NCBI GenBank assembly: GCA_045401115.1
Contig: CP174359.1
Span: 1-48,116, forward strand
DNA: 48,116 nt
Source of the DNA: Candidatus Phycocordibacter aenigmaticus
GTDB lineage: Bacteria; Patescibacteriota; Minisyncoccia; Phycocordibacterales; Phycocordibacteraceae
Direction of reading: 5' to 3'
Shown one piece after another: positions 16,584 through 41,943 of this stretch. Each line of letters starts with the position of its first letter. The stretch's first letter is position 1. The notes beneath the pieces are model-generated. The model searched no databases and was not told the DNA's origin. It worked only from the letters and a program-made list of their open reading frames with translations. Position numbers and translations under genes: made by a program.

Positions 16584-16609
16584 ACTATATATTGTACCGC
16601 CTCATTTAA

Positions 16610-16680
16610 CTACTTTTGTAGTTTCCACCTTCTACTTCTGGTCTCTACATTCTACCTACTACTTTCTACCTACCATTCTG
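16610..16680. repeat. Heptamer array (~9 units) in inverted orientation, upstream of the four-helix-bundle and holin-family genes
   Basis: Reverse complement reads CAGAATG GTAGG TAGAAAG TAGTAGG TAGAATG TAGAGAC CAGAAG TAGAAGG TGGAAAC. Confidence 0.85.
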
Positions 16681-24449: not shown

Positions 24450-24471
24450 TGGGGAAATAATACCATAAGTG

Positions 24472-24613
24472 AGGTAAGTGGGAGGTGGGAGGTAATTTTG
24501 ATGGGAAATAAACGGCTCAGGGGGTGAGCCGTTCTTTTTGGGAGTTAAATGACGGACGTCCGACGTCCGTCATGTGGAAGAGTGCTATGTGCGGACGTCG
24601 GACGTCCGCACAT
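24472..24613. repeat. Composite element copy 1: heptamers + 30-nt hairpin + inverted palindrome doublet
   Basis: AGGTAAG TGGGAGG TGGGAGG (24472-24492); GGAAATAAACGGCTCAGGGGGTGAGCCGTT (24504-24533); ATGACGGACGTC-C-GACGTCCGTCAT (24549-24573); ATGTGCGGACGTC-G-GACGTCCGCACAT (24587-24613). Confidence 0.85.
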
Positions 24614-24647
24614 GGAGAGGTGGTTTTTGGGAGGTATTGAATAATTA

Positions 24648-25391
24648 TTATTCCTCGGCGCCGAAGGCGTTGGCGCAGGATTCGCTACGAGTGAAACCAG
24701 CGGCTTGGGCCTCATCTTCAGAGCAGAAATATGACTCGCCTTTGCGGGTGTCCACTTTGACACGGTTGTAGTTGGGGCATCCTTCAAGGAAATAGCTCTT
24801 GCCGTAGCCTTTCTCGGAAATATTTCCTTTGATGGTGCAGGACGGGTCGCTTGGGCCGGTGGCTTGTTCACGCAATGAATCCTCTTCAACTAGAAGATCA
24901 CACGCGCGCCACATGCCGCGCTCCTCTTTACGCGCTTCTTCACGTGCGCTGCTGAGGAGGTCGCGGTAGCGATTGTCCGGCGCTTGTGCGAAGACATCCG
25001 CATAGCCGGCGCGCACGAGTGCATCCTGCACGAAGATGTCATCGTCTTTCGGGTCATCGGAGGCGAGGTATACGTAGCGGAGCAGGCGGTCGTAGCGGTC
25101 ACTTCCTGAAATATCTTTTTCAATGCGGATAGTCTCCCCTTCTATCAACTCTTCGAGATATGCTTTGCTCTCATTATAGAAACAGTCGCTACGCTCAGGC
25201 GCATCAACGCCAAGCAGACGGATGCGTGTGTCGTTTTCTATATCAATGGTGTCGCCATCGACAACGTGCACCACGTGGTGCACTGAGTGTTCAAATAAGT
25301 CTGCGTCATTGTCGCGGACCAGTATGTAGCCGCCCACTGACCCTCCCGCAAGAAGGAGTGAGAATAGTGCTGCCAGTACCTTCGGTTTCAT
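24648..25391 (-). CDS. Thermonuclease (SNase) family protein, N-terminal membrane anchor, C-terminal Cys-containing domain
   Basis: VVDGDTI, IRLLGVDAPE, DRYDRLLRYV motifs; C-terminal CTIKGNIS...CPNY...FCSEDEAQAAGF. Start moved to ATG 25391, 7 nt after TGCTACAAT. Confidence 0.9.
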   Translation of the reverse strand: MKPKVLAALFSLLLAGGSVGGYILVRDNDADLFEHSVHHVVHVVDGDTIDIENDTRIRLLGVDAPERSDCFYNESKAYLEELIEGETIRIEKDISGSDRYDRLLRYVYLASDDPKDDDIFVQDALVRAGYADVFAQAPDNRYRDLLSSAREEARKEERGMWRACDLLVEEDSLREQATGPSDPSCTIKGNISEKGYGKSYFLEGCPNYNRVKVDTRKGESYFCSEDEAQAAGFTRSESCANAFGAEE

Positions 25392-25461
25392 TCCTTTTAT
25401 TGTAGCAATAGAGGAACAACTTGATAGAAACCTTCCCCATGGCGCGGTAGTATATAGCGTA

Positions 25462-26721
25462 GTGGTTAAAACAGTACAAAACAAGCTTTACCAGCTCCTC
25501 CGCTGGAGTGAGCGCTACACGAAAACCGATATGGTGTATCTTGCCTCCGGTGGTTTTTGGCTGACTGTGGGGCAAGGGGTGTCTTCGCTCTCGGCTTTTG
25601 CACTAGCTATTGCGTTTGCAAACCTGGTGCCACCGGAAACGTACGGTACGTACAAGTATCTCCTTTCCATCGCGGCTATCTTCGCGATTTTTACTCTCCC
25701 CGGCATGAACACTGCCGTGGCGCGCGCGGTGGCGCGCGGCAACGAAGTGACCGTGCGCGCCGCAACCAAAGCACGCCTTCTCTGGAGTTTTCTCGGCACA
25801 CTCGCCGCTTTCGGCGGTGCGCTGTACTACTTCATAAACGGCAATATGGAGCTTGCCATTGCGCTGGCCATCATTGGCGCAGTGCTTCCCCTATTCGATA
25901 CCTTTACCACATACAACGGCTACCTGACGGGGAAAAGAGAATTCAAGAAACAATCCCTCTTTCATCTTGTTTCACAAAGCATTAGCACCGCTTCCCTTAT
26001 TGGCGCCCTTCTTCTTACGAACAATGTTCTCTTCCTGCTCCTTGCGTACTTCGTCCCTCTCGCCGTAGTGCGCTTCGTGCTGTATAAAAAAGTAGCTGCG
26101 AGTCTGAAATTAGGGGCGCCTGACAAAGAAACGCTCACCTACGGAAAGCATTTGAGTTTTATTAATGTGCTAGGTGTGGTAGCCGGCAGCATTGATAAGA
26201 TCCTCCTCTGGAAATTCCTCGGTCCGGCACAACTAGCAATTTATGTGTTTGCACTCGCAATACCGGAACAAATGAAAGGCCCTCTCAAAGGAATCGGGGA
26301 ATTAGCGTTTCCAAAATTTGCCGCTCAAACTCCTGAACAAATTCATAAAAATATGCCTTCTCTTTGGAGAAAGCTTGCTTTATACGCAACGGGTCTTTTT
26401 GGAATCTCCCTTCTTTATATTCTTGCTGCACCATTTATTTTTAAATTCCTCTTCCCTCAGTATATGGAGAGTGTAATTTATTCACAAATTTTCTCTCTAA
26501 CCCTTGTAACTGCTTTTGGTGCCGTACTTGCACAACTACTTGCGGCTCAAAAAAAAATACAGGTCCAATACATAATCTCAACAGTACAACCAATAATAGC
26601 CGTAGCACTCTTTTTGATTTTTATTCCAATATATGAAGTCTGGGGAGCAATACTTGCCTTTGCTATAAGTCGTCTTGTGGCGATAATCCTATATATTTCA
26701 GCAGTAATTAGAAACGTCTAG
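25462..26721 (+). CDS. Wzx-like oligosaccharide flippase
   Basis: 419 aa, ~12 TM; PETYGTYKY, IDKILL..FLGPAQLAIY..A motifs of the MATE-like/Wzx family. Confidence 0.9.
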   Translation: MVKTVQNKLYQLLRWSERYTKTDMVYLASGGFWLTVGQGVSSLSAFALAIAFANLVPPETYGTYKYLLSIAAIFAIFTLPGMNTAVARAVARGNEVTVRAATKARLLWSFLGTLAAFGGALYYFINGNMELAIALAIIGAVLPLFDTFTTYNGYLTGKREFKKQSLFHLVSQSISTASLIGALLLTNNVLFLLLAYFVPLAVVRFVLYKKVAASLKLGAPDKETLTYGKHLSFINVLGVVAGSIDKILLWKFLGPAQLAIYVFALAIPEQMKGPLKGIGELAFPKFAAQTPEQIHKNMPSLWRKLALYATGLFGISLLYILAAPFIFKFLFPQYMESVIYSQIFSLTLVTAFGAVLAQLLAAQKKIQVQYIISTVQPIIAVALFLIFIPIYEVWGAILAFAISRLVAIILYISAVIRNV

Positions 26722-27376
26722 TAACTTTTGCGAAACTAATTTCAAGCCTGCCGTGGTCAACATTATCAAACACATCAATTTCATTGAGGATTTGAATATT
26801 ATATTTAGTTCGGTCTATTGCATCAACAACGGGTTTTGCTGATTGATCGTCACGGTTACGCCAATAATCATCGAAAATTATTACTGTATCTTTATCCATG
26901 AGCTGTCGCACCGCATTCCAATCACTTCGCACTGTATTTACATTATGCCCACCATCAATAAAAATGAAATCGAATGGTTCCGCATTTTTCACATAGGCCG
27001 GTAATGTTTCTAGAGTATTACCTTGTACTAATTCAATATGCGCACCTGTTTTTGAAAGTTTTTCTTCTACCTCTTTTTTTTGAGGTGGTCGTTTTGAAAT
27101 TTCATACTCAAACATATCATTATCCAATTCCTCAAAAAGGTCGAAACCCACATAAAGAATATCTTTTACGGGAGAGACTTTTTGAGCGGTTTTAATCATT
27201 TTCACAGCCCTACCTCCATTCCATGTCCCAACCTCGAGTATCCGCGTTGCCTGCAGGCGAGCAATCTCATCAAATAAATGATGGTAACGTTTTGGTGCTT
27301 TAAATTTTTGATATAAAAAATTTACAATGGGTATATAAAGCGGCCTAAATATATGGACATATTTTTTCATAATCAT
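26708..27376 (-). CDS. Class I SAM-dependent methyltransferase (Methyltransf_24-like)
   Basis: ILEVGTWNG, YVGFDLF, FDFIFIDGGH, IIFDDY motifs. Confidence 0.88.
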   Translation of the reverse strand: MIMKKYVHIFRPLYIPIVNFLYQKFKAPKRYHHLFDEIARLQATRILEVGTWNGGRAVKMIKTAQKVSPVKDILYVGFDLFEELDNDMFEYEISKRPPQKKEVEEKLSKTGAHIELVQGNTLETLPAYVKNAEPFDFIFIDGGHNVNTVRSDWNAVRQLMDKDTVIIFDDYWRNRDDQSAKPVVDAIDRTKYNIQILNEIDVFDNVDHGRLEISFAKVTRRF

Positions 27377-27409
27377 TCTATTTTAAATTTCAGCGCAACA
27401 CATAAAAAA

Positions 27410-28516
27410 CTATTTTTTAAGAATTTGTAATTCTTCTTCATATAAGTCTACTACATTAAACCAATCAAACGTTAAGGCGCGTTGATAGGCTCTTTTTTCA
27501 AATTGCTTCCTTTTCTTTTCATTTGTCAAAAGAAGATTCATACCGGTCATTATAGATTTATAGTTAGGTTGAACTAGTAGTCCAGTTTGGTTATTTTCAA
27601 TCGCAACTTCAGCACCCGAACCATAAGTACCTAAAGAAGTCTTTCCACATAGCGCTGCTTCAATATAAACCATCCCGAAACCCTCAATAGAGTTCGGACT
27701 AGAGACCGGAGTGAGGATAAAAAATATTGCATTATTATATAAATCTATTAACTCTTTATCGGAGGCATTTTCAATAAAGACGACCTTATTTTGCAAACCA
27801 TTATCTTTTATAAATTTCTTTATTTTAATGTAATATTCAGGAGAATCTGTAGTAGATCCAACGAAAATATAGTGAAGTTCGGGATACTTCTTTGAAATAT
27901 TTTCAAAAGCTTTTAAAGATTTCAATTGTCCTTTCCGGGGTTTTAATGCACCAACACTTAATATATAAGAATCTGGATATTTATTTATTCTCTTTGTTTG
28001 TCCTATGAATAACTTTGTATCAACGCCTACTGGAATATAGCGAATATTATCCTTAAATAAAAAACTAGAATTAGATGCTTCAATTTGTTTTTTGACAAAA
28101 TCGTTAATAGGCCAGACACGGCCTACTTTATTATAAACTTGTTTCATCAACCAGTTCTTTATTTGACCATTTTCGGTGAAGAGTGAGTATGTCCCCAATG
28201 AATGTATTGCCACGTTTTTGATGCGACCAAGCATTGCAAGATAAGCAATAATTCCGGCAGGACGAGTGTCGAAACAAACGATCACATCGTGTCTTTTTAA
28301 AAAAAATCGGAGTTTTAAAAGCTGAAATATACTTCGAAATGGCCTTCTAAAATACTGTCGAAATGGCACGACGAGTGTCTGATACTTACTAGTATAATTT
28401 TCCGAAACGAAGCTAATTTTATGTCCCCGTTCTGTTAAGCCATCAGCAATACTGACCGCCATTCTACCAAGGCCAGAATGAGGATTTATATTCTCCGCAA
28501 TAAGGCAAATTCTCAT
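27410..28516 (-). CDS. Glycosyltransferase family 4
   Basis: ILSVGALKPRKG, EGFGMVYIEAALCG motifs. Confidence 0.93.
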   Translation of the reverse strand: MRICLIAENINPHSGLGRMAVSIADGLTERGHKISFVSENYTSKYQTLVVPFRQYFRRPFRSIFQLLKLRFFLKRHDVIVCFDTRPAGIIAYLAMLGRIKNVAIHSLGTYSLFTENGQIKNWLMKQVYNKVGRVWPINDFVKKQIEASNSSFLFKDNIRYIPVGVDTKLFIGQTKRINKYPDSYILSVGALKPRKGQLKSLKAFENISKKYPELHYIFVGSTTDSPEYYIKIKKFIKDNGLQNKVVFIENASDKELIDLYNNAIFFILTPVSSPNSIEGFGMVYIEAALCGKTSLGTYGSGAEVAIENNQTGLLVQPNYKSIMTGMNLLLTNEKKRKQFEKRAYQRALTFDWFNVVDLYEEELQILKK

Positions 28517-28521
28517 GCCCC

Positions 28522-28911
28522 CTATTTTATATCAAGATCAACCCTAACAGTGTCTTCTTCATATCCGTCATCATCACGACTTAATGTTGTCATGTCAATC
28601 ATTACACTATCTTCTTCGGCAATATAAGTATGTACAACTCCTGGAGGGACCTCTGAAAACATTCCTGCTCCGAGGATATAGTCTTCTCGCTCACTACCAT
28701 CCGGCAGACAAACTACCAAACGTAATTTTCCGCTCATAACATAATCGTATTGAGTGGACTTGTGATGATAATGTTTAGCACGTAACGCCCCTTTTTTAAA
28801 ACTTACACAGCCGACATGACTAATCGATTTATTAATAATGTCAGTAATAGTGCCTCGCCCATCTATGTGTACAGGTTTAATTGTAGTAATAGTTGCTAAT
28901 TTTTTTTTCAT
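28522..28911 (-). CDS. Cupin-domain protein (sugar epimerase/isomerase-like, FdtA/WxcM-type fold)
   Basis: DGRGTI, R.KHYHHKSTQYDYVMSG, PPGVVH cupin motifs. ATG 28911 preferred over the track's TTG at 28929. Confidence 0.75.
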   Translation of the reverse strand: MKKKLATITTIKPVHIDGRGTITDIINKSISHVGCVSFKKGALRAKHYHHKSTQYDYVMSGKLRLVVCLPDGSEREDYILGAGMFSEVPPGVVHTYIAEEDSVMIDMTTLSRDDDGYEEDTVRVDLDIK

Positions 28912-28921
28912 AAATATTACA

Positions 28922-30181
28922 TTATTCAATAATGGTTGGTTCCGGTATCGGAACTATAAATTTACCACCAGCCTCTCTATACTCTTCCAAATTTTTTATA
29001 ATCTCTTCTGCAAAATTCCACGCCAGAATAATAGCATAATCTGGTTTCTCTTTTAATAAACTTTCATCAGAATATATCGGTATCCTTGTACCAGGAGTAA
29101 ATAAGTTCTGTTTAAGTATGCTTTTCTCAGTAAGAAAATCAAGGTAATAATTATCGATGTTACAAAAGTTAAGTAATGTATTACCTTTTGCTGGCGCCGA
29201 AACGCCGACAATACTCTTCCCGTCCATTTTCAATTTATTGAGCAAGATTAAAAGATCACTACGTTGTTGATATGTCTTTTTTCGAAAATCTTTTAAGATT
29301 TCCCCGCCGTAAAGCCCTAAATCCTCTTCTTGTTTTATAAGTTTTTGTACTCCTTCTTCTACACTATACGCGCCCTTATGTCCAATGTAATAACGGAGCG
29401 TACCACCGTGAATCTTTTGTTTTTCTACATCAAATAACTCCAGCCCGAAAGATTCGAAATAAACAGCTAGTGGTTTGACTGATAGATAACCTATGTGTTG
29501 ATGATAAATGGTGTCGTATTCTACATTCTTAAGCATATCTACCGCATATGGTGCTTCTATGACAATAACCCCATCATCTGATAATAATTTTTTCATTCCA
29601 TAAACTGCGGAGTCAATTTCATGCAGGTGTGCAAAAACATTAGTACCTGTGATTACTTGAGCTTTTCGACCGCGTTTAACAATAGAGTCCGCGAGGGTCT
29701 CTGTAAAAAAATCAATAACTGTATCAATTCCACTATCAATTGCTTTTTGGGCGACCTTTTCAGCTGGATCTACTCCTAATACATCAAAACCACACTCCTT
29801 AAAACCTGTGAGTAAGACTCCGACATTACTGCCAATATCAACTGCCAGACTTGCTTTTGAAAAACTAAAACGCTTAGCTATAGCAGCTGCCATTTTTTTA
29901 TAATGCTCAACTCCACTTTTTGTTATAGACGATTCATATATATAATTTGTACGATACAAAATATCTGGGTTTACGAAATAATTAATCTGCAAAAGACCGC
30001 AGTAGCCACATGACATTAATTTAAGCGGAAAATAAACCTCCATCTCATCTAACCTTTCCTCAGTTAAAAAATCGTCAGAATGTGGTTGCATGCCCAAATC
30101 AAGAACCAACTTGAGTTCTTTTTTCTTACACATATGGCAAGAGTGCGACATTTTACCAAACTGACCAGGATCAATTTTCAT
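28922..30181 (-). CDS. NDP-sugar C-methyltransferase (Zn-binding; methyltransf_13/14 architecture)
   Basis: CxxC...DLG.QP...PL....[47 protein letters not shown] motifs. Confidence 0.9.
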
Positions 30182-31175
30182 ATTTTTTTAACATTTGTAT
30201 ATCTGCATCAACCAAAATTCTGACAAGTTCTCTAAAACCTGTTTTAGGTTCCCACCCTAATTTTTCTTTTGCTTTTGAAGCGTCTCCTTGAAGCACATCT
30301 ACCTCAGCTGGTCGAAAAAGATGCTCTTTTATCTCCACATATTTTTTCCAATCAAGGTTAACATAAGAAAAAGCTTCTTCAAGGAACTCACGGACCGTAT
30401 GCGTCTCATTTGTAGCAAGTACATAATCGTCAGGACTGTCTTGTTGTAACATAAGCCACATCGCTTCTACATACTCAGGTGCATAACCCCAATCTCGCTT
30501 TGCATCTAAGTTTCCCAAATAAATCTTTTCTTGTTTACCAACCAAAATATTAGCGACCCCTCTAGAAATCTTACGAGTTACAAAATTTGGACCACGACGC
30601 GGAGATTCATGGTTAAACAAAATACCAGAGCATATAAACATTCCGTATGACTCTCTATAGTTCTTACACATCCAATGAGCGTATTGCTTACTCACAGCAT
30701 ATGGACTACACGGATAGAAAGGGGTTGTTTCTGTTTGCGGGGTTTCGATTACCTTACCATACAACTCCGAGGTTGAACCTTGATATATTTTTGTATGTTC
30801 TAAATTATTATTACGTACCGATTCAAGTATCCTAGTGATACCAATACCAGTGACATCTCCCGTATACTCTGGTATATCAAAACTTACCCTTACATCACTC
30901 ATTGCACCCAAGTTATATATCTCATCTGGTTTAACCATTTTAATGATTCTTTCCAGGCTACTTGAATCACCCAAATCCCCGTAATGCAATTCTAAATTAT
31001 CATGATCTTTAATATTTCTATCACTCAACAAGCCATCATCTGAACCAATATAAAAATTACTTGACCGCCGCACAAGTCCGTGCACCTCATAACCCTTTTT
31101 CAGCAAAAATTCTGCTAGATAAGATCCATCTTGGCCAGTTATGCCTGTAACAAGTGCGATTTTTTGTTTTATCAT
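30171..31175 (-). CDS. gmd: GDP-mannose 4,6-dehydratase
   Basis: [62 protein letters not shown] motifs. Confidence 0.97.
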
Positions 31176-31290
31176 AACGCTATTATATTGACAATAATCA
31201 GTATATTATAAGAAAGTATAACTTAATTTTAGATTATAGTCATTGTATATAGGTATCGATTATCTTTGGTTTAATTTGATAAACACCGTT

Positions 31291-32007
31291 ATGATAAAAA
31301 GGAAGACAATTCTCATACTTGGCGCAACAGGCGGGATAGGTAAGGCAATTTCTAAATCATTGAGTAGAAATAATAACCAATTACTATTACATGGTAATAA
31401 TAAAAACAAACTCGCATCAATGGAGCGCGAGCTCGACCAGATGGATGTAAATATAAATTCATACCAGGTAGATTTATCTAATCCAAAATCTGTCACTGAA
31501 TTTACTAATGAATTATGTAATAAATATCCAGAAATTGATTGGATAATAAATACTGCTGGTTACATTAATGAAGATGAGAAGAAGGGAGAACAATCGATCA
31601 GCAGTATCGAACGAACTTTTTATATTAATACTATTGCGCCAATTTATTTGACCGAAAGAATAAAGAAGAATATTACAGATGTAGGAGGTGTGATAATGAT
31701 TTCTTCTACTGCATCATTATCTGCAAATCCTGGGTTTCCTATATATTCAGCAAGTAAATCAGCGTTAAACACATTTACAAAGTCTCTATCAAAACAATTC
31801 TTAAATATGAATAAATCAGCTTTTGTCATTTGCCCTGGGGGCACAAATACTACAATGCGAGAACGCGTTGCGGGAGATTCATTATTACAACAACATCCTA
31901 ATGTTATTGCTGCAGAAATTTCCAAAATAATAGACGGATTATCTGAGTTTAAAAACGGAGATATTATTATTATTAAGAATGGTTTTGTAAATAAAGAGGG
32001 GTTGTAA
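31291..32007 (+). CDS. SDR family oxidoreductase (putative NDP-sugar ketoreductase)
   Basis: ILGATGGIG, INTAG, ISS, YSASK motifs. Start moved to ATG 31291 from the track's TTG at 31243. Confidence 0.85.
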   Translation: MIKRKTILILGATGGIGKAISKSLSRNNNQLLLHGNNKNKLASMERELDQMDVNINSYQVDLSNPKSVTEFTNELCNKYPEIDWIINTAGYINEDEKKGEQSISSIERTFYINTIAPIYLTERIKKNITDVGGVIMISSTASLSANPGFPIYSASKSALNTFTKSLSKQFLNMNKSAFVICPGGTNTTMRERVAGDSLLQQHPNVIAAEISKIIDGLSEFKNGDIIIIKNGFVNKEGL

Positions 32008-32107
32008 CACGCAAAAAATCATTTATTTCTGCTTCAGAAAAGCAAGTGATAATGGGACATCTCCTTCTTATTTAGATAAGTATAATTTGATAGGTGGAGT
32101 GAACACG

Positions 32108-33172: not shown

Positions 33173-33173
33173 A

Positions 33174-33779: not shown

Positions 33780-35215
33780 AATGAGATATTTTTTGTTGTT
33801 GCTTTCTTTAATAAAGTACCGAACTTACTAGCTGGAAGGACTGTTAGCTTTACAGATTCTTTTTCTATTTCCATAGAGACAATTTTCCCGAATCCTGTTT
33901 GGTACCACGGTAGAACCATAGTAACGGAATCGGTGAAAAAACGCCAAAGACGTACTATTGCTTCTCCAGCATGCCCACCGCGCAGTGCATACCAACTATG
34001 GTTTAACACCTCCTTTACACTGAAGAAATACGCATATGGAAGCCTTGGTATTTGAAAACGTAAACGATGCGCCGCGTCTAGACCGTTTTGGTAAATACCT
34101 GTTGTTGGATTTCTTTTTTGCCAGCGCGTGTTTATTAATATACGCCGCGCTTGGTTCGTATCGGAAAAGACTTCTTTTCCGTGGAATGTATACAAAAATG
34201 GCTGTAGTTCGTTTGCATGATTGAACATATCTTCGATACCATCGATGCGTGTGAGCCACGCAAGATGCGCTGTCCAAAAAATTGGACATTGAAAATTGAA
34301 ATTTAAACCTTTATGAGAATGTAGGAACCCATCAAAAAAATGTTGCCGTACTTGATACAGTACGTTATTCAGCGCTTTTTGCGCAATTGGATTTTTTGAA
34401 TGTGAAAGAGCGTATGCATCAAATGCGTGTGAAGCAACCTCATAAGAAGAGAGCCAGTACCAACGTTTACACTCCATACGGAGGTCTTTTATACCGTTGG
34501 AGTCGTACATTGAAAGAAGTGCGCCTATAGACGCCTCAAGTGCTTCTTCATACACACCCTCCTTTATATTAAGGGCATTGAGGGTGTACTGAGCAAACGC
34601 TGTGTGCCTTGATTGATAAAACGTAGTGATGTCGTCATATGGTAAAGAGTTTTTTGCTGGGTCAGGATAGTATCGAAAAAAACCATCTGGGGTTGCATCT
34701 TTAAAGGCACGTTCAATACTTTCATGAGCAATTGTCCGATACGCACTCTCCTCTCCCAAATAGCGCGCATATGATGCAAGTCCCGTAAGACCCCATAAAC
34801 GTTGGTTGGTTATTTTTTTACTGCGCGCGGTTTTCACAAGGTACCCTTCAGCCACTTCTCGAAGTGTTGTTTGTATTTTTTCATGCTCTTTTTTAGAAAA
34901 ACTGTCTCTGTTATTTGTGGCAAAACGCGCAACGGCGTCTACAGCGGTCCCTGTGTCAATGACATTTTGAGACATATTCATAGGGTTTAGATGACCTGGA
35001 TAGAATACTTTTGCGCCTTCAGGAGATTCAACAACAAGATCAAGTAAATACCACACAAACTTTTTTCCTTTTTCAATTTCTCCAAGATAATCATAAAAAT
35101 CTAACAAGTACGCATTGCTTCCTGTATGCTCCACACGGTGCTTCGGGCACGTACGATTTTTTTCGAGATATACCGCGGCTTCGCGGATCATATGTTTAAA
35201 AGTTATGAGCGGCAT
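33776..35215 (-). CDS. Hypothetical 479-aa protein in the glycan cluster (possibly alpha/alpha-toroid); alternative start at 35191
   Basis: Long ORF overlapping neighbouring genes at both ends; predicted helical and aromatic-rich; no family recognised. Confidence 0.75.
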   Translation of the reverse strand: MPLITFKHMIREAAVYLEKNRTCPKHRVEHTGSNAYLLDFYDYLGEIEKGKKFVWYLLDLVVESPEGAKVFYPGHLNPMNMSQNVIDTGTAVDAVARFATNNRDSFSKKEHEKIQTTLREVAEGYLVKTARSKKITNQRLWGLTGLASYARYLGEESAYRTIAHESIERAFKDATPDGFFRYYPDPAKNSLPYDDITTFYQSRHTAFAQYTLNALNIKEGVYEEALEASIGALLSMYDSNGIKDLRMECKRWYWLSSYEVASHAFDAYALSHSKNPIAQKALNNVLYQVRQHFFDGFLHSHKGLNFNFQCPIFWTAHLAWLTRIDGIEDMFNHANELQPFLYTFHGKEVFSDTNQARRILINTRWQKRNPTTGIYQNGLDAAHRLRFQIPRLPYAYFFSVKEVLNHSWYALRGGHAGEAIVRLWRFFTDSVTMVLPWYQTGFGKIVSMEIEKESVKLTVLPASKFGTLLKKATTKNISL

Positions 35216-36173
35216 ACACCTCTAGAATATTTGGGATTAGATGTTGGAGTGAATGATTTTTCTTTACGTACGTGTATAGGTCTTCAGTGTTTGTGTATGT
35301 AGGTGCACATACTGCACGTGACAGACTTTCGGTAGTCGGATCTGCAATAGTAACGGGCATGTCTGTGTAGGTTGGGTTAGTAGTTACAACTGGGCAACCA
35401 CAAGCAAGTGCCTCCAACACCACCTTATCAAGTGAGCCAGTCTCTGATGTGTGTACAAACATGGCAGCGCGGCGGTATTCATCCGGAAGGTCTTTATGAG
35501 AAAGGCCTGCTGGCATTTCGACTTTTGCGCCGAGCTTTTGCGCGAGTGCCGCGAGGCGCTCGCGCTCTTCCCCTTCCCCTATGATGCGCACCGGCTTCCT
35601 TGATGCAGCAGCCGCTTCTATCACTAGGTCATGCCGCTTGGTTTTCATTAAGCGGCCAACTGAGAGGAGATGCTCGGCGCGCTCCACTGTCGCGCCCGGA
35701 GTAAATACATCAACATCAATGCCGTGCCCCATGATCTGTACCTTTTTGGATTGAAGGCGGAAGCTCCCTGGTGTTGCGGTAAATATATGTTGCGCAAAAA
35801 CCTCAGCAAAGCGTAGCTTTAAATCAACACTTTTATGCATATACCACAGTCCGAGTGTTTTACCAGTGAGACGCCAAATCCAACCAGCAAGGACGATGTA
35901 CTCAGGATTCATATGTACAAAAACTCCATCGTATTCTCGATGTAGTTTGGAAAGTAGAAGGTAGAAGGTGGTAAGTTGTTGGAATTTGTTAGTTCCGCGC
36001 TCTTTACCGAGTGAGTGCACGGTGACATTTTTCGGCAGATCGTAATCCCCTGTTTGGAGCGCAATGACGTGAATATGTTCAGCGTTCTTTGCGAACTCAA
36101 CCAGCCACCTATGAAAAAAACCGAGTATCGGGTGGTTTCTATCGACAACTTGGGTGATGATTAATAATTTCAT
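35196..36173 (-). CDS. Glycosyltransferase family 4
   Basis: LSVGRL..TKRH, TGSLDKVVLEALACG motifs. Confidence 0.92.
   Translation of the reverse strand: MKLLIITQVVDRNHPILGFFHRWLVEFAKNAEHIHVIALQTGDYDLPKNVTVHSLGKERGTNKFQQLTTFYLLLSKLHREYDGVFVHMNPEYIVLAGWIWRLTGKTLGLWYMHKSVDLKLRFAEVFAQHIFTATPGSFRLQSKKVQIMGHGIDVDVFTPGATVERAEHLLSVGRLMKTKRHDLVIEAAAASRKPVRIIGEGEERERLAALAQKLGAKVEMPAGLSHKDLPDEYRRAAMFVHTSETGSLDKVVLEALACGCPVVTTNPTYTDMPVTIADPTTESLSRAVCAPTYTNTEDLYTYVKKNHSLQHLIPNILEVYAAHNF
35948..35975. repeat. Four heptamer units inside a glycosyltransferase CDS
   Basis: TGGAAAG TAGAAGG TAGAAGG TGGTAAG; encodes (Q)LTTFYLLLS(K) on the minus strand. Confidence 0.75.
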
Positions 36174-36177
36174 ATTT

Positions 36178-36233
36178 TAGTAAGTGGTAGGTGGAAAGTG
36201 GAAGGTGGTTAAGGGAATGCAAGAAATGGGAAA
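36178..36233. repeat. Heptamer array (~8 units) ending 4 nt before the ATG at 36173
   Basis: TAGTAAG TGGTAGG TGGAAAG TGGAAGG TGGTTAA GGGAATG CAAGAAA TGGGAAA. Confidence 0.88.
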
Positions 36234-36250
36234 CAACATATACAGATTAA

Positions 36251-36715
36251 CTACTTTTTAGGCTTGGTGAAAATGACGTATTTGTAGAGGAAGAAATTAA
36301 ATACCGCGAGTATGCCGAGGGAGAATACCTGCGCAAGGAGGTACCACACGTCAAACACCACCGTCAGTAGGTACATTATGGCACTGTTGGCGATGAGGTT
36401 AAAAATCCCTCCGATGAAGAACTTGATAACCTGCCAGTGGGCGCCGGCGACTGTTTTGTCCTCGAAGGTCCACAGCTTCTGCAAGAAAAAGTTAGAAATT
36501 GTCGCAAAGGCGAAGGCGATATTCACCGAGTACCAGTATGGCACCAGAAAAACTTCCTGGAGAAGAAAGAGCGAGGCGAGATCAACGAAGGCGGCGGTGC
36601 CGCCGCCGATCAAGAAACGTATATAGACCAGCGGCACGCGGTTTAGAGGCGGCGGGAGGATGCCGAGGAGCCAGGTGGTGAACCTGCTGTGCTGTGTGGG
36701 ATGGTTATGATCCAT
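36251..36715 (-). CDS. GtrA family membrane protein
   Basis: RFLIGG..AAFVDL, NFFLQKLWTF, KFF, four TM segments. Confidence 0.92.
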   Translation of the reverse strand: MDHNHPTQHSRFTTWLLGILPPPLNRVPLVYIRFLIGGGTAAFVDLASLFLLQEVFLVPYWYSVNIAFAFATISNFFLQKLWTFEDKTVAGAHWQVIKFFIGGIFNLIANSAIMYLLTVVFDVWYLLAQVFSLGILAVFNFFLYKYVIFTKPKK

Positions 36716-37316
36716 TGTTTTTTATTAATTGTTCTAACTCGTCGAAGGAGGTGACAGTCGGCACAGAGCCGATGCCGGGGTTGCCGTCGCGACGCATTTC
36801 ATACACAGCGACGTCAGGACACTCCTCTTTAACTGCAAGGAGTTGTGAGTCGTGGTCGTCGATGAAAAAATAAGGACCGTCATATTTTTTTATTAACGCA
36901 GCAACTTCACTTCCTTTTGTGGCGCCGCCGGCAAGCGGTATGTTAGATACTGCCTGCACAATAGCGAATACTCCTGACGCTTCTAGTTTTGCTTTTTGAT
37001 ATGACGGGCACGCGCGGTTGGCGGTCACAATAACTGAATGTTCCCCGTGTATATCGAGAAATTTTTGTGCGTCGGGATACACATACTGCGCGTATTCACC
37101 TGGATCAAGTGTTATAAGCCCTTCGGTAAACAACCGCTCTAACTCACGAGATACTTCAGCACGCCGCGGATTGTTTAAGTTAAATTTTTCAGCTCCCAAC
37201 ATCACTTCGTCAAACAACTCTTTCACGTCAGGCACTACAGTGAGTTTGTTTGAAAGATACTGATATGAGCGATAGGTATCAAAGAGGGTTCGGTCGAAGT
37301 CGATAAAGAAGGTCAT
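36705..37316 (-). CDS. HAD-superfamily hydrolase
   Basis: FFIDFDRTLFDT motif I; TKG; FFIDDH motif IV. Confidence 0.85.
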   Translation of the reverse strand: MTFFIDFDRTLFDTYRSYQYLSNKLTVVPDVKELFDEVMLGAEKFNLNNPRRAEVSRELERLFTEGLITLDPGEYAQYVYPDAQKFLDIHGEHSVIVTANRACPSYQKAKLEASGVFAIVQAVSNIPLAGGATKGSEVAALIKKYDGPYFFIDDHDSQLLAVKEECPDVAVYEMRRDGNPGIGSVPTVTSFDELEQLIKNNGS

Positions 37317-37320
37317 AAAT

Positions 37321-37362
37321 TAGTAGGTGGTAGATAGAAGGTGGAAAGTGGTTAGTGGAAGA
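37321..37362. repeat. Heptamer array (6 units) between the two HAD genes
   Basis: TAGTAGG TGGTAGA TAGAAGG TGGAAAG TGGTTAG TGGAAGA; ends 4 nt before ATG 37316. Confidence 0.9.
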
Positions 37363-37371
37363 ATAAAGAAT

Positions 37372-37875
37372 TTATGTTTTTAGAGCTACTTTCTCAAGCT
37401 CAAATAGGTTTTGTACTGCGATAAATTCCGGCGCTTCTTCTCCAGCGTTTTTAGCGGTCGGGCGACGCATACGTACCACCTGCACACCCGGTACATTATC
37501 ACGAACATCGGCAAGCTCGTTGAGAGAGTCGTCGGCAAAAACAGCAGGAGTGTTTTCTGAATGCTGTGCGAGATAGCGCCTGATAGCTTCTGACTTTCCC
37601 CCTTCTGTTACATAAAGCGCTTCAGTAATGCGAGAAATAAGACGAGTGTTTTCTAATTTTGCTTTTTGGACCTCTTCTACACCACGCGTCACTACTACCA
37701 ACTCATGTCCTGCTTTTTTCCATGCGGCAAGAAAACCAGAAACATCGTCGTATAAAAACGGTGAGAGATCAGAGAGGGTTACGTTCTGGGTTCCTAAAAT
37801 AAAATCAGCTTCAAGTGCGTTGTAGAACGCTTCTGTGTTGAAAAGTGTTCGGTCGAAATCAAGGAAGAAAAGCAT
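37372..37875 (-). CDS. HAD-superfamily hydrolase (tandem paralog)
   Basis: FFLDFDRTLFNT, VVVTRG, GGKS, VFADDS motifs. Confidence 0.85.
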   Translation of the reverse strand: MLFFLDFDRTLFNTEAFYNALEADFILGTQNVTLSDLSPFLYDDVSGFLAAWKKAGHELVVVTRGVEEVQKAKLENTRLISRITEALYVTEGGKSEAIRRYLAQHSENTPAVFADDSLNELADVRDNVPGVQVVRMRRPTAKNAGEEAPEFIAVQNLFELEKVALKT

Positions 37876-37880
37876 AGAGA

Positions 37881-37894
37881 TGGAAGGTGGTTAG
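37881..37894. repeat. Two heptamer units 5 nt before ATG 37875
   Basis: TGGAAGG TGGTTAG. Confidence 0.55.
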
Positions 37895-37958
37895 TTGACT
37901 GTTTAAGTAATTTTGATATTATAGTTATATTACGACGAAAAGGGGCCCAAACGGTTAA

Positions 37959-38486
37959 CTACCTAAGGCCCCCTTTTCTTTTGCCAATTTTCTCCCTAAT
38001 ATCACCCTTACTTAGATCATCAAAGTATCTACGGGTGATTTTTTTATACAAAGATGATGCATTACTGTTCGGGAAAAGCACTTTTTCCAACCTCTCCTCT
38101 TCAAGAAGAAATTTCACCATTCGAAAATAGTCGCCGTCTCCAGAAACAAGTACTACTTTATTGAAATCATCTTTTTTATAAAGACGATGCATACATGCAA
38201 AAACAATTTCAGTATCAACATTCCCCTTTTTAATACTTTTCATTGCCGGATTATGTTTACGGAACTTAACAATAAAACCAGCTTTTTGTATCGCATCATA
38301 TAGTTCGTCATTTGCAGCATCAACAAAGCCAAGCCAATAGTATGCCTCTTCAACTGCGTATTTTTTCTGCAGATAAATACGAAAACGCGCTAGATCAATC
38401 TGCCAAGGATTGGTTGGATGTTCTGTGGTTCCCAGATGGAGATTCTGTCCGTCAATAAAGGCAATATTTCTTCGATCTTTCTGCAT
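37959..38486 (-). CDS. NYN domain (LabA/DUF88, PIN-like) protein
   Basis: AFIDGQNL, KGNVD, LVSGDGDY motifs. Start moved to ATG 38486, 6 nt after TGCTACTAT. Confidence 0.92.
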   Translation of the reverse strand: MQKDRRNIAFIDGQNLHLGTTEHPTNPWQIDLARFRIYLQKKYAVEEAYYWLGFVDAANDELYDAIQKAGFIVKFRKHNPAMKSIKKGNVDTEIVFACMHRLYKKDDFNKVVLVSGDGDYFRMVKFLLEEERLEKVLFPNSNASSLYKKITRRYFDDLSKGDIREKIGKRKGGLR

Positions 38487-38490
38487 ATTT

Positions 38491-39486
38491 TTATAGTAGC
38501 AAAGAAATAACCGCTTTTGCGAGTGTGTGCGAATCATGGCGCACGAGGCTGCGGCGTACTGCGTCGGTGGCGTGCTGTTTGGGCGCTGGGGCAAGCATAG
38601 GAATGCGAAGCGCGTGTTCGGTATAGTCGTCATGCACGAGGCATTCGCGAGCTTTTTTATACGCGGCAATGACATCTTTGGCTGGTTCGGCGTTGTTGAT
38701 GACCACAGTGTCGGGTTTTCTGCCGGTGTAGCGGGTGAGCGTATCGACGTGGTCAGTCACTGACATGTCATCAGTCTGGCCGCACTTGGTCATGAGGTTT
38801 GCCACGTATGCGACCTGCGCATCAGTTTTCTGTAGTGCTTCGGAGACTCCTTCAAAAAGAAAATTAGGGATGATGCTGGTGTAGAGATCGCCCGGCCCAA
38901 GGAGTACGAGGTCAGCCTCATTGATGGCACTAAGCGCCGAGGTGTACGCCGGAGTGGATGAATCAAGAAAAATATCGGTAATGACGCCGCGTGTTTGTTC
39001 CCCAGGATGTTTGTCTATTGCCGCCTCCCCGTGCGTTGTACTGCCGTCTGCATACTGCGCGACGAGACGCGCGTGTGTTTCAGAGACCGGTACAACACGG
39101 CCGCGGATGTTGAGAATCTTTGTTGCCTCTTCAATGGCACGCGCTTCGCTGCCGAACATGTCGGTAAGTGCAACGAGAAAAAGATTGCCGAGGTTGTGCC
39201 CTTTAAGCCCTTCCTCGCCGCGGTCAAAGCGGTACAACATGAGTTCGCGCACGATGTTCGGTTCCGTGTCGCCGGCGGCGAGTGCGGCGAGTGCCATGCG
39301 TACATCCCCCACTGGCAGTTTGCCGAATTGGTCCATGAGCCTGCCTGTTGAACCACCGTCGTCTGCCACGGATACTATGGCAGTTATGTCGATGGTGTCG
39401 GCGTATTTCTTAAGTCCTGAGAGGGATACGAAAGTGCCGGTGCCGCCGCCGATGGTTACTATGCGTTTTTTGCTGTTATCTGCCAT
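38491..39486 (-). CDS. yvcK: YvcK/CofD-like family protein (UDP-GlcNAc-binding, gluconeogenesis factor)
   Basis: IVTIGGGTG, VADDGGSTG, GHNLGNL, GPGDLYTSIIPN, NLMTK.GQT, HDS..LA motifs. Start at ATG 39486. Confidence 0.92.
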   Translation of the reverse strand: MADNSKKRIVTIGGGTGTFVSLSGLKKYADTIDITAIVSVADDGGSTGRLMDQFGKLPVGDVRMALAALAAGDTEPNIVRELMLYRFDRGEEGLKGHNLGNLFLVALTDMFGSEARAIEEATKILNIRGRVVPVSETHARLVAQYADGSTTHGEAAIDKHPGEQTRGVITDIFLDSSTPAYTSALSAINEADLVLLGPGDLYTSIIPNFLFEGVSEALQKTDAQVAYVANLMTKCGQTDDMSVTDHVDTLTRYTGRKPDTVVINNAEPAKDVIAAYKKARECLVHDDYTEHALRIPMLAPAPKQHATDAVRRSLVRHDSHTLAKAVISLLL

Positions 39487-39496
39487 AGAGTATGTA

Positions 39497-40639
39497 TCAT
39501 TGTTGATTGAGGCAATCGGTGAATGCTTGTTGATATGCCTTTTTATACGCTTCTTTTTCCATAAGCACTGAGTGTGCTTTTTTGCGGGCGCGACCGCCCA
39601 TGAGGACGCGTGCGTTCGGGTCAGCGAGTAAGCCACTTAACGCCCGAGCAATAACGTACGGCAGTGGACGCACGACCAGCACGTCATGCTGCTTTTCATA
39701 CACTTCGCCGACAACACCGACGTCAGTGGTGACGATAGGCAGCCGGGCGAGACCGGCATCAATGAGTGTCATGCCGTAACCTTCAAAGCGTGAGAGCTGC
39801 AGAAAAATATCGGCATGTTCATAGTATGACGCGAGATCTTTCTGCCACCCAAGAAAGTGTACCCTGCTGGCTATGCCAAGGTTTCGGGCGCGTTTCTTTA
39901 GAAGATTCTCGCGTGAACCGCTGCCGGCAATGTAGAGGTGTGCCTCGGGTACATGCACCATAGCTTCAAGCGCGACGTGTATTCGCTTTTCTGGTTCCAA
40001 ACGAGAGACCATCAGTATCACCGGATGTTCAGGGTTGTATGCGGTGGGACGTTTTGACGCGACCTCGACATCCTCTATTGACGTGTCGTGTATAGGAAGG
40101 ACGGTGATCTTTTCTTTGTTGACGAACCAAAGACTTTTTGCGATACGTTTAGACACCACGCGCACGCGTGTTGCCTGTGCAATGACAAAAAAAGCGATGA
40201 ATACTTCGATAAATTTCCGAATAGATGAGAGAAAATAGTGAGGGTTGAATGCGTCAGTATGGATTTGTGTTTGCAGTGACACATGCAGGGCGCGCGCGAT
40301 GCGCCAGCCGGCAAAGCCTAGGAAAAATGGGTCTTGAGTGGACACGACGAGGTTGTCGGTATTTTTTTCAGGAGCGTGTGGCGCGAGCGCGCGCCCTTCG
40401 CGCATACCTTCGAGAAAGGCATTTGAATATGCCTCTTTTTTTGATGCGCCACCAGGGAAAACAACACGGACGTTACTTGAAAGTTCAAACACTTGTCGCT
40501 CGCCTACACCGAGAACAAGGATGGTGAGTTTTTCAAACAACGTGCCGTAGGATTGCATGCGCGCCTGCACCGCGCTATCTGCGTCGAGTATCTTCGCGTC
40601 TGTTGAGAGCATAAGTGCGCGGGTGTTTTGCCTGGTCAT
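39497..40639 (-). CDS. Glycosyltransferase family 4
   Basis: VSRLEPEK, EGYGMTLIDA...PIVTTDVG motifs. Confidence 0.92.
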   Translation of the reverse strand: MTRQNTRALMLSTDAKILDADSAVQARMQSYGTLFEKLTILVLGVGERQVFELSSNVRVVFPGGASKKEAYSNAFLEGMREGRALAPHAPEKNTDNLVVSTQDPFFLGFAGWRIARALHVSLQTQIHTDAFNPHYFLSSIRKFIEVFIAFFVIAQATRVRVVSKRIAKSLWFVNKEKITVLPIHDTSIEDVEVASKRPTAYNPEHPVILMVSRLEPEKRIHVALEAMVHVPEAHLYIAGSGSRENLLKKRARNLGIASRVHFLGWQKDLASYYEHADIFLQLSRFEGYGMTLIDAGLARLPIVTTDVGVVGEVYEKQHDVLVVRPLPYVIARALSGLLADPNARVLMGGRARKKAHSVLMEKEAYKKAYQQAFTDCLNQQ

Positions 40640-41772
40640 ATATGTTTAAAGAACATAGCAGTTTCTTCCACCATGCGGGCTATAGAAAATCGGTCTACCC
40701 TATTTTTTGCATTTCCTGCTAAGCGTGCGCGACTTTCGGGAGCGTTGAGCAATTTCTCTATGCGGTGTGTGAGCGTTTTAGTATCGTTCGGCTTTACCAG
40801 GTAGCCATGTACGTTGTCTTCAATAAGTTCAGGATTACCTCCCACTTTGGTGGTGATGATCGGCACGCCCACCGACGCCGCTTCAAGAAGAAGGTGTGAG
40901 AAGCCTTCGTAGCGGGTATTGAGCACGAACACGTCGGCCGCACGCATGTAGCGGAGTGCTACGGCACGATCTACATTGCCGGTAAATACTACAGAATCCG
41001 CAACACCGAGGTCTTCCGAAAGAGCGACAAGGCGGTCCATCTCGGGGCCGTCGCCGACAATGAGAAGGCGCAAGTCAGGAATACGCTTGCAGAGTTCTGC
41101 GTGAATGCGGATGAGCGTGTCAAAGCCTTTCCACGGCACCAGGCGGCTGACTGAAATGACCAACTTGCCTTTAAATTTAAGAAGACCGCGGATGACTTGT
41201 TTAAGTCCGACAGGTTCTATATCAACGCCATTGTAGATAACGGAGATACGTTTTCGCTCTACTCCCCACTCGCGTACGATTTTACCGAGGTATTTGCTGG
41301 GTACTATCACCTTTACGGCTTGCCGGGCTACCCACCGTTCGAGGGTGCGCATGATGCGAATGAGGAGAGGAAGAGTGGTGTCTTTTTGAAATTCTTCAAC
41401 TGTTTTTGTATAGCGAAATCTACCACCTGCCTGTTCCCACGCATAATCACCCACCATTTTAAGTACAAACGGTTTACGCATGAGTTTTGCTGCGAGTGCC
41501 GACGGAAGGCCGACTGAGATAGGATCTTGAGCATACACTACATTCGGTTTGAATTTGTGGATACGTGCCACTGTTTTGAAAAAATATGCCAGATGCCGTA
41601 GGAATTTTGGATAGCCACGCACTTCACGATACGGAAGCACCGATACACTAAAGCCATAAGCTGGTAAGCGCTCTAGGAGTGTTTTGGAATAGGTCGCTGG
41701 ACCACCCCCTTCAGGTGGGAAAAGCCCCGTAGCTATGAGTATTTTTTTACCTTGAGATGATTTTTGTACCAT
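40636..41772 (-). CDS. Glycosyltransferase family 4
   Basis: ATGLFPPEGGGPATY, SVSRLVPWKG, EGFSHLLLEA motifs. Confidence 0.94.
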   Translation of the reverse strand: MVQKSSQGKKILIATGLFPPEGGGPATYSKTLLERLPAYGFSVSVLPYREVRGYPKFLRHLAYFFKTVARIHKFKPNVVYAQDPISVGLPSALAAKLMRKPFVLKMVGDYAWEQAGGRFRYTKTVEEFQKDTTLPLLIRIMRTLERWVARQAVKVIVPSKYLGKIVREWGVERKRISVIYNGVDIEPVGLKQVIRGLLKFKGKLVISVSRLVPWKGFDTLIRIHAELCKRIPDLRLLIVGDGPEMDRLVALSEDLGVADSVVFTGNVDRAVALRYMRAADVFVLNTRYEGFSHLLLEAASVGVPIITTKVGGNPELIEDNVHGYLVKPNDTKTLTHRIEKLLNAPESRARLAGNAKNRVDRFSIARMVEETAMFFKHI

Positions 41773-41779
41773 TTATTGC

Positions 41780-41808
41780 ATCATACCTCTACACACCGAT
41801 GGGGACAA
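41780..41808 (-). promoter_or_regulatory. sigma70-type promoter of the 41772 glycosyltransferase
   Basis: TTGTCC-17 nt-TATGAT, 7 nt before the ATG. Confidence 0.65.
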
Positions 41809-41813
41809 TAAAG

Positions 41814-41943
41814 CGGGAAATAGAAGGTGAAAAGTGGGAGGTGGTAGGTAGTTAATGGTAAGTGGAAGGTGGTAGGTAGAAGGTGGAAATAAACGGCTCA
41901 GGGGGTGAGCCGTTTATGTGTAGCGAGGACCGACCTCGCTACA
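41814..41943. repeat. Composite element copy 2: ~11 heptamers + identical 30-nt hairpin + GAGG-ACCGA-CCTC palindrome
   Basis: CGGGAAA TAGAAGG TGAAAAG TGGGAGG TGGTAGG TAGTTAA TGGTAAG TGGAAGG TGGTAGG TAGAAGG TGGAAAT; 41885-41914 is identical to 24504-24533; TGTAGCGAGG accga CCTCGCTACA (41919-41943). Confidence 0.88.

Follow-up and report, generated by a model that had tools for sequence, protein, structure and literature searches.

In Neisseria and the Pasteurellaceae, DNA uptake sequences arranged as inverted pairs form terminators after many genes, with conserved arms of 10-12 nt and variable loops; most uptake sequences are single copies, and they are found inside genes as well. Palindromic repeats form a second group, within which different repeat families are known to cluster into mosaics in Neisseria and in the bacterial interspersed mosaic elements (BIMEs) of Escherichia coli, and repeats of the CGTC type have been described without an associated transposase gene (Di Nocera, 2013; PMC3733652). 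Tandem heptamers able to form quadruplexes, in turn, have been described in Xanthomonas and Nostoc within 50 bp upstream of open reading frames (ORFs) and on the antisense strand (Rehm et al., 2015; PMC4692102). Here we describe two intergenic stretches of Candidatus Phycocordibacter aenigmaticus, a member of the Patescibacteria, that combine features of several of these repeats. Both lie in what is called the window below, that is, the whole 48,116-nt stretch of DNA that was analysed, which makes up the initial 48 kb of a genome that is a single contig of 721,362 bp (CP174359.1; 44% GC, 98% complete). In each stretch, a heptamer array is followed by the same hairpin and by one or two palindromes, and it is the family to which this hairpin belongs, designated F1, that forms the most interesting component of the two stretches.

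Taken together, the data presented below suggest, with a probability of roughly two in three, that each of these composites is an intergenic mosaic of independent repeat families ordered by transcription, and neither a mobile unit nor a cassette junction. Read along minus-strand transcription, the order would be stop codon, palindrome(s) resembling repetitive extragenic palindromes (REPs), F1 with its U-rich tail, a pyrimidine-rich heptamer array, a promoter and a leaderless start. F1 would represent a resident, symmetric hairpin of the intrinsic-terminator type that works in both directions and whose arms belong to a multiplied, sequence-conserved family, while the REP-like palindromes would have entered later, in the 3' untranslated gap that separates stop codon and terminator. 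Those of the first copy (family F2) share their core with the palindromes at a Y1 gene at 48.6 kb that resembles REP-associated tyrosine transposases (RAYTs), and that of the second copy (family F3) belongs to a separate family. The heptamer arrays are G-rich, possibly quadruplex-forming antisense repeats of the kind described upstream of ORFs, and they match the arms of a four-helix-bundle gene cassette. Lastly, the identical sequences shared by the two copies would be two members of one F1 sub-family with a common loop and tail; a local copying or gene conversion of ~60 nt is possible but would not be needed to account for them.

Make-up of the two stretches

The 30-mer GGAAATAAACGGCTCAGGGGGTGAGCCGTT is found at 24504-24533 and at 41885-41914, on the + strand both times and with no mismatch between the copies. 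No third match was found in the window with up to three mismatches allowed, and 0 of 100 shuffles reproduced its recurrence. The hairpin core that the original prediction, made from the letters of the window, had reported as 30/30 identical and present twice was thus confirmed at exactly two sites, and the order given there, heptamer array followed by hairpin followed by palindrome(s), is correct for both copies. The supposition that the right-hand palindromes form one family did not hold: the first copy carries the core GACGTC-S-GACGTC twice (F2) and the second reads GTAGCGAGG-ACCGA-CCTCGCTAC (F3), so that the modules on the right of the two copies bear no relation to each other. The best local alignment of the copies takes in the 30-mer and, across an indel, a further 22 nt of heptamers with 20/22 identities; the 60-nt flanks on either side show no more similarity than shuffled sequence does. 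Since the flanking genes are on the minus strand, the GGAAAT of the 30-mer represents a U-rich tail, and the sense reading is AACGGCUCA-CCCCC-UGAGCCGUU-UAUUUCC, a hairpin followed by that tail. No Rfam family was matched in the window.

Repeat families are not spread evenly over the gaps between genes. Under a length-weighted null, and with F1 to F5 and the heptamer arrays (H7) as the scored families, 15 intergenic gaps were found to contain at least two families, against 7.3 +/- 2.2 expected and a maximum of 16 in 2,000 trials. Three families are present in each of five gaps, in orders that vary (F1+F2+H7; F1+F3+H7; F3+F5+H7; F1+F4+F5; F1+F4+H7). Because the repeat units are symmetric, an orientation in the sense of BIMEs is undefined here, and the only fixed linker found is the spacer of the F1 doublets described below (3 copies).

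A filled and an empty state can be compared at 270.8 kb, where the gene ending at 270847 displays ~75% protein identity to its orthologs in two genomes of the same genus, G001 and G018. In both of these (loci L157 and L155, respectively) the gene ends ...HFE-TAA with the stop codon inside an F1 arm (gaaTAAACGGCTCA...), while positions 270740-270860 of the genome analysed here contain the stop codon, an F5 palindrome, a further hairpin with a 12-bp stem and only then tGAAATAAACGGCTCA..., the insert being flanked on either side by TGAA(A)TAA. As judged from these sequences, F1 is the shared resident at this site, between which and the stop codon the other palindromes were inserted. Both window copies display the part order of this filled site. 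The F2 doublet of the first copy is moreover enclosed by a direct repeat reading TTTTTGGGAG(T/G)TA (12/13), and when the doublet and one repeat are deleted in silico, F1 comes to lie 25 nt from the stop codon of the upstream SNase gene, the usual distance for the family. The spacers between the hairpins of this copy are C-poor and resemble the heptamer array, and the hairpins look as if they interrupt an older G-rich stretch.

The F1 hairpin family

Defined as AACGGCTCA-N3-9-TGAGCCGTT with one mismatch per arm allowed, F1 is present in 42 copies genome-wide; the original prediction had reckoned with the case that the two window copies are the only ones, and the opposite is true. Copies measure 23-24 bp, or up to 46 bp with outer stems, have a variable centre and are essentially all intergenic, with 3/42 located within crude ORF calls. 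The 10-mer AAACGGCTCA is the most frequent of the genome (72 occurrences), and unpaired F1 9-mers number 8-9 genome-wide, which is chance level. Information content amounts to ~2 bits across ATAAACGGCTCA / TGAGCCGTTTAT and drops to ~0.2-0.4 bits at the position with which the centre begins on either side; almost every copy has a centre of its own. Compensatory double changes are found in the arms of three copies (one with AATGG...CCATT, two with AACAG...CTGTT), 11 copies have arms at least 6 bp longer than the 9-nt core arm, and the hairpins fold on both strands (z = -3.1 to -10.5); taken together, these features demonstrate that the structure of F1 matters. The extensions are mostly copy-specific, as in CATGTACAT-AAACGG...CCGTTT-ATGTACATG, and perfect stems of up to 24 bp are found among F1 copies in other metagenome-assembled genomes (MAGs) of Patescibacteria.

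Three F1 doublets have the 8-nt spacer CTTTGCTA in common (genome positions 103815-103870, 116528-116583 and 449304-449359), and in two of the three the centre of the second hairpin is GTGCAC. The common spacer and centre suggest that the larger doublet unit has itself been copied. In the Patescibacteria MAG loci L049, L099 and L113, the left arm is tandemly duplicated (AAACGGCTCA-N-AAACGGCTCA-loop-TGAGCCGTTT), an arrangement which suggests that F1 arms can be added as units.

Among the 31 F1 copies located downstream of a gene end, 21 sit 21-44 nt past the stop codon, and the genes situated 5' of F1 include those for GroEL, UvrA, GlmS, RNase Y, peroxiredoxin and peptidyl-prolyl isomerase as well as genes for hypothetical proteins. 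F1, the tail consensus of which is TTTATTTTT, shares with intrinsic terminators both the hairpin and the position at gene ends, and no bias of loop orientation with respect to gene strand was found. As the 30-mer consists of a hairpin and a U-rich tail on the sense strand, a two-way terminator is its most likely identity, and for F1 in general the sequences make an intrinsic terminator acting in both directions fairly probable. The earlier suggestion that the hairpin could act as a terminator is in this respect supported, in that its structure and its position after stop codons appear terminator-like.

A hairpin with identical 12-nt arms and a T-run is found between rpsQ and rplN in all 5,426 of the 5,426 complete E. 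coli genomes searched, a gap at which the S10 operon ends and the spc operon starts. Across the Enterobacteriaceae (L078:6816-6839 and ~25 other loci), the arms of this hairpin are kept while the loop varies by genus, and an ordinary terminator can therefore combine conserved arms with a free loop. The identity of the arms in E. coli and F1 is probably coincidental, and the E. coli hairpin provides a useful positive control for terminator activity.

Exact F1 arms are carried by 3 of the 40 nearest genomes, with 5-6 copies each, and by 29 of 301 genomes spread over the order (own genome included), representing 26 of 190 genera and mostly having 1-8 copies. The 36 exact copies of the genome analysed here are the maximum seen, the next-highest genome containing 16, and F1 of other genomes often has a fixed centre, for example AACGGCTCAACGCGTTGAGCCGTT. 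A scan of public genomes revealed single F1 copies in many phyla, which fits a generic terminator-like sequence that arises often, and the MAGs in which the hairpin was found were labelled Saccharibacteria or Patescibacteria. The multi-copy state of F1 is a Patescibacteria-specific feature, and no description of such repeats was found in the literature on the candidate phyla radiation (CPR) or Saccharibacteria.

Accompanying repeats, genes and promoters

Table 1. Positions of the parts of both composites, of adjoining genes and promoters, and of related features elsewhere (window and genome share one numbering; REPIN, REP doublet forming hairpin).
Feature	Position	Strand	Description
Shared 30-mer copy 1, F1 hairpin	24504-24533	-	hairpin 24511-24533; arms 24511-24519 / 24525-24533; loop G5 on +, C5 on -; tail UAUUUCC = 24504-24510
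Shared 30-mer copy 2, F1 hairpin	41885-41917	-	hairpin 41889-41917; full 12-nt arms ATAAACGGCTCA / TGAGCCGTTTAT, 41889-41900 / 41906-41917; tail as in copy 1
Heptamer array copy 1	24466-24500	+	units GTAAGTG / GGAGGTG / GGAGGTA; G-rich, antisense to Wzy; reaches extended -10
Heptamer array copy 2	41815-41886	+	~10 units of GGTAGGT / GAAGGTG / GTAAGTG type; G-rich, antisense to GT4
F2 palindrome a	24549-24573		ATGACGGACGTC-C-GACGTCCGTCAT; REP-like, CGTC-type; core as at Y1 gene 48590-49300
F2 palindrome b	24587-24613		ATGTGCGGACGTC-G-GACGTCCGCACAT; can pair with palindrome a to give a long REPIN-like hairpin
F3 palindrome	41919-41943		TGTAGCGAGG-ACCGA-CCTCGCTACA; GTAG-type, REP-like; GG-TCGGT-CC tip; 3 nt past stop of acidic ORF
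Direct repeat TTTTTGGGAGTTA	24535-24547	+	F2 doublet lies between it and a 12/13 partner, TTTTTGGGAGGTA, at 24624-24636
Flanking genes of copy 1	24648-25484, then 22263-24449	-	SNase, then Wzy_C/TPR protein
Flanking genes of copy 2	41947-42903, then 40636-41772	-	318-aa acidic ORF without Pfam hit, then GT4 glycosyltransferase
Extended -10 TGgTATTAT	24457-24465	-	7 nt before Wzy ATG (24447-24449); leaderless mRNA predicted
Promoter-like TTGTCC-17-TATGAT	41780-41808	-	-10 (41780-41785) ends 7 nt before GT4 ATG (41770-41772)
Four-helix-bundle gene cassette	16068-16680	-	sole PF05635 / TIGR02436 gene of the genome, 16221-16583; inverted arrays 16068-16217 and ~16610-16680
Y1 gene with F2	48590-49300		core GACGTC-S-GACGTC in frame (encoding MGDVRRHP) and 16 nt past stop
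Y1 gene with F5	96129-96854		TATAAAGGAC-W-GTCCTTTATA within frame and at stop
Y1 gene with F4	247641-248375		GGTCAACACCCGGGTGTTGACC on both sides of gene

Three PF01797 (Y1/HUH) genes of RAYT-like character are present in the genome, each with a palindrome family of its own and none with F1 (Table 1). Among NCBIfam families, the one at 48.6 kb matches REP-associated tyrosine transposase best, with a score below the cut-off, and a CGTC-type palindrome reading AATGGGTGACGTC-C-GACGTCACCCATT lies in its reading frame, ~0.5 kb past the end of the window. F2 to F5 comprise 7-17 copies each; those of F3, of which 11-12 are palindromic, have a conserved GG-TCGGT-CC tip and varying stems. In size and number, all five families correspond to REPs, which are extragenic palindromes of 20-40 bp in high copy number (~42 copies of F1 and 7-17 of each of F2-F5). 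The unpaired GTAG or CGTC tag of REPs is lacking, the arms of F1 being untagged and the GTAG of F3 and the CGTC of F2 being base-paired in the stem. A cognate Y1 gene flanked by its repeat, the arrangement known as a REPtron, is found for F2 and is not found for F1, and tblastn searches with the three Y1 proteins at 117 F1-bearing loci of other genomes gave no hit.

About a dozen arrays of GGTRGGT / GWARGTG heptamers exist genome-wide, six of them at 16-42 kb of the window. Each of the five intergenic window arrays precedes a start codon by 7-43 nt and has its G-rich strand in antisense, a placement that agrees with the heptamer simple sequence repeats (SSRs) of Rehm et al. (2015), which are tandem, G-rich and located antisense upstream of, or sense after the stop of, a gene; from their sequence, the window arrays are possibly quadruplex-forming. 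The arrays bracketing the PF05635 gene use the heptamer units of the composite arrays, and the composite arrays are solitary. The motif (A/G)TGGGAAA(T/C)A or GGTGGAAATA punctuates or ends heptamer arrays at window positions 16100-16112, 24497-24508, 36226-36238 and 41815-41824, and in both composites the left arm of F1 begins within this motif. Approximately three GAAGGTA heptamers are found inside an ORF of the GT4 family (35196-36173), at 35950-35969. A 71-nt array of opposite orientation (C-rich on +) occupies genome positions 87588-87658, ~150 nt from an F1 hairpin at 87811, such that array and F1 share one gap with a spacing unlike that of the composites.

With regard to transcription, TAnnnT, often as TGnTAnnnT, peaks strongly with its end 6-9 nt upstream of start codons, being so placed at 148 of the 394 genes that have an intergenic gap of 50 nt or more in front of them. 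No Shine-Dalgarno signal was detected genome-wide, GGAG/GAGG not being enriched upstream of starts, and genes that come first in their operons therefore look leaderless. The layout of promoter and start at Wzy is matched in five Wzy orthologs of the genus.

The two genes upstream of the composites, which had been described as accessory-looking, vary in their presence within the genus: SNase has an ortholog-level match in 1 of the 32 other genomes of the genus (with 3 further weak hits), the acidic ORF has no ortholog-level match in the genus (2 weak hits). For Wzy, the count is 27 of 33 genomes, with the window's own among them. In a metagenomic relative (~65% identity), a flippase gene, SNase, a stretch of small ORFs and then Wzy follow one another. 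Of these small ORFs, the one examined (L137:4783-5130; 115 aa) is by eye similar to helix-turn-helix proteins and follows SNase, and similar ORFs after SNase are found in L139 and L010; the window genome has no such ORF at the corresponding place and contains the repeat mosaic there instead. L137 also carries an F2-like palindrome, TGACGGACATCGGATGTCCGTCA (5196-5224), downstream of the first small gene after SNase.

Alternative readings and described systems

Several observations weigh against the mosaic as outlined above. The sense-strand U-tract of both window copies is interrupted (UUUAUUUCC), a consensus terminator scan flagged copy 1 on the + strand only, and F1 is not depleted from divergent gaps, which contain 8 of 39 copies on crude ORF-based gene calls, as a pure terminator should be. 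Although 4-5 of the 18 F1 copies of G001, G018 and G038 are situated at sites orthologous to copies of the window genome, one of them in a different family of the order, ~2 such coincidences would be expected by chance if F1 were restricted to ~350 gene ends, and these sites therefore do no more than hint at vertical retention. That F2 and F3 were inserted in the window is argued from analogy to the 270.8-kb site and from one 12/13 direct repeat. When flanks were checked for target-site duplications, as had been proposed for the composites, no general duplication was found for any of the five families, the longest word shared by left and right flanks being that of the null; the 12/13 repeat at the F2 doublet and TGAA(A)TAA at 270.8 kb remain anecdotes. 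No enzyme or mechanism that copies F1 was found. Likewise, relatives provided no clean empty site for the two window loci, because the nearest genomes display 58-68% protein identity and differ in gene neighbours; their regions upstream of Wzy contain the promoter and are free of the repeats. Exact-protein look-ups found no strain-level relatives.

A further point of this kind is that, of the 42 F1 copies, the two in the window alone have the G5 loop and the GGAAAT flank, and that their alignment runs into the heptamers with 20/22 identities, such that the window copies may be direct copies of each other. The 30-mers would then be direct paralogs, a segment of ~60 nt comprising three heptamers, hairpin and tail having been copied or gene-converted between gaps 17 kb apart. 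This account is compatible with the mosaic, to which it adds one event, and we regard it as possible, if rather unlikely: other pairs or groups of F1 copies share loops without sharing flanks (CCCTAT x2, CCCAGG x2, ATGCAT x2 and GTGCAC x4), any two arrays align about as well because they are built from the same units (for example 19/22 by eye against 16130-16160), and an indel separates heptamers from hairpin. Very improbable, and largely refuted, is the transposition of array, hairpin and palindrome as a single composite, a non-autonomous element similar to miniature inverted-repeat transposable elements (MITEs) or BIMEs. Equal part order in both copies and the clustering of repeat families beyond chance would accord with such an element, but the palindrome modules are of different families (F2 vs F3), the block lacks the shared ends, terminal inverted repeats and target duplication of a MITE, with flanks that do not differ from the null, and other clusters combine families in other orders. 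What had been predicted to be MITE- or BIME-like consequently stands as a BIME-like mosaic of palindromes accompanied by three RAYT-like Y1 genes, and falls as a single non-autonomous mobile unit, given that modules differ between the copies and that each recurs elsewhere with other partners and in other orders.

The original prediction had also proposed a cassette-junction signature, and a recombination site resembling integron attC or lox/dif sites, with 12-bp inverted arms around a variable centre of 4-6 bp, might indeed mark the insertion of accessory genes, the more so as both upstream genes are rare in the genus. However, F1 measures 23-24 bp and its arms deviate from the attC consensus, attC sites being far longer (57-141 bp) with RYYYAAC...GTTRRRY core sites, and it is located at a fixed short distance past stop codons. 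It follows many core genes, GroEL, UvrA, GlmS and RNase Y among them, and SNase is linked to flippase and Wzy in a distant relative too; F1 is therefore no insertion marker, and this proposal is scarcely credible. No association with an integrase was seen, none having been searched for. Quite improbable, too, is the idea that the conserved arms constitute a protein-read signal, whether for DNA uptake (from inverted pairs like those of Neisseria), for the binding of a termination or processing factor, or for a hairpin-specific enzyme of which they would be the substrate. Such a signal would be in keeping with invariant arms around centres saturated with change and with the occurrence of the arms in 29/301 genomes of the order (26/190 genera), at some orthologous sites, yet virtually no unpaired copies exist, unlike in uptake sequences, the motif is absent from ~90% of related genomes, and the ordinary terminator of the Enterobacteriaceae is similarly conserved in its arms and free in its loop. 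Uptake sequences were rejected as candidates, unpaired F1 copies being at chance level.

The mosaic reading, which we prefer, makes F1 a variant of REP-like or terminator repeats and no new kind of system; it is a largely familiar genome feature. A bolder account, which we consider unlikely, is that F1 is a self-propagating, standardised two-way terminator, the arm sequence of which, and not just its fold, is recognised and copied by a hairpin-specific activity, and which lasted across a whole order of Patescibacteria (29/301 genomes sampled), expanded to ~42 copies in this genome and attracts other palindrome families to its resident hairpins, from which the mosaics would result. Candidates for this activity would be a RAYT-like Y1 enzyme acting in trans or a templated fold-back that might also make the copy-specific outer stems. 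If F1 does represent a copied terminator, it would be a plain example of how a regulatory part can spread in the form of a repeat, and its copies would be ready candidates for transcript ends in a lineage whose transcripts have hardly been mapped. For annotation, the mosaic reading would mean that look-alike intergenic blocks of this genome are stacks of independent repeats and neither mobile cassettes nor markers of gene insertion. An ultra-small Patescibacteria genome that is leaderless and free of Shine-Dalgarno signals gives its commonest 10-mer to one hairpin found after many genes and retains three RAYT-like transposases that are accompanied by one palindrome family each.

Comparison with described systems reveals both similarities and differences. 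Uptake sequences of Neisseria and the Pasteurellaceae resemble F1 in their arms and variable loops, and differ from it in that single copies of F1 are at chance level. The E. coli S10-operon terminator has the arms ATAAACGGCTCA / TGAGCCGTTTAT, a short variable loop, a flanking A-tract/T-tract and a position just past a stop codon, all as in F1; it is nevertheless single-copy, whereas the arms of F1 are multiplied ~42-fold and its T-tract is often short or interrupted. As with the GGGNATC-type heptamers of Xanthomonas and Nostoc (short tandemly repeated repetitive sequences, STRR, of cyanobacteria; PMC4692102), the arrays described here have a period of 7, are G-rich, lie between co-directional ORFs and vary in unit number; unlike them, they have the unit GGTRGGT / GWARGTG, with GG instead of GGG tracts, and amount to about a dozen, six of them within 26 kb and linked to the PF05635 gene cassette. 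Finally, multicopy palindromes of 20-40 bp downstream of genes, with several families per genome, are common to REP/BIME systems (PMC2817692; PMC3733652) and to this genome, as are, in systems with RAYTs or terminal inverted repeat-associated tyrosine transposases (TIRYTs), Y1 (HUH) genes flanked by their own palindromes and interleaved clusters of repeat families. The tags of F2 (CGTC/GACG) and F3 (GTAG/CTAC) are those of REPs, but are paired and not unpaired, and the CGTC-type family adjoins a Y1 gene, unlike the repeats of Di Nocera (2013; PMC3733652). F1 itself departs from REP systems in lacking both a GTAG/CGTC tag and a neighbouring Y1 gene and in its hypervariable centre, and the host of these REP-like repeats, unlike that of known REP/BIME systems, is a 0.72-Mb Patescibacteria genome.

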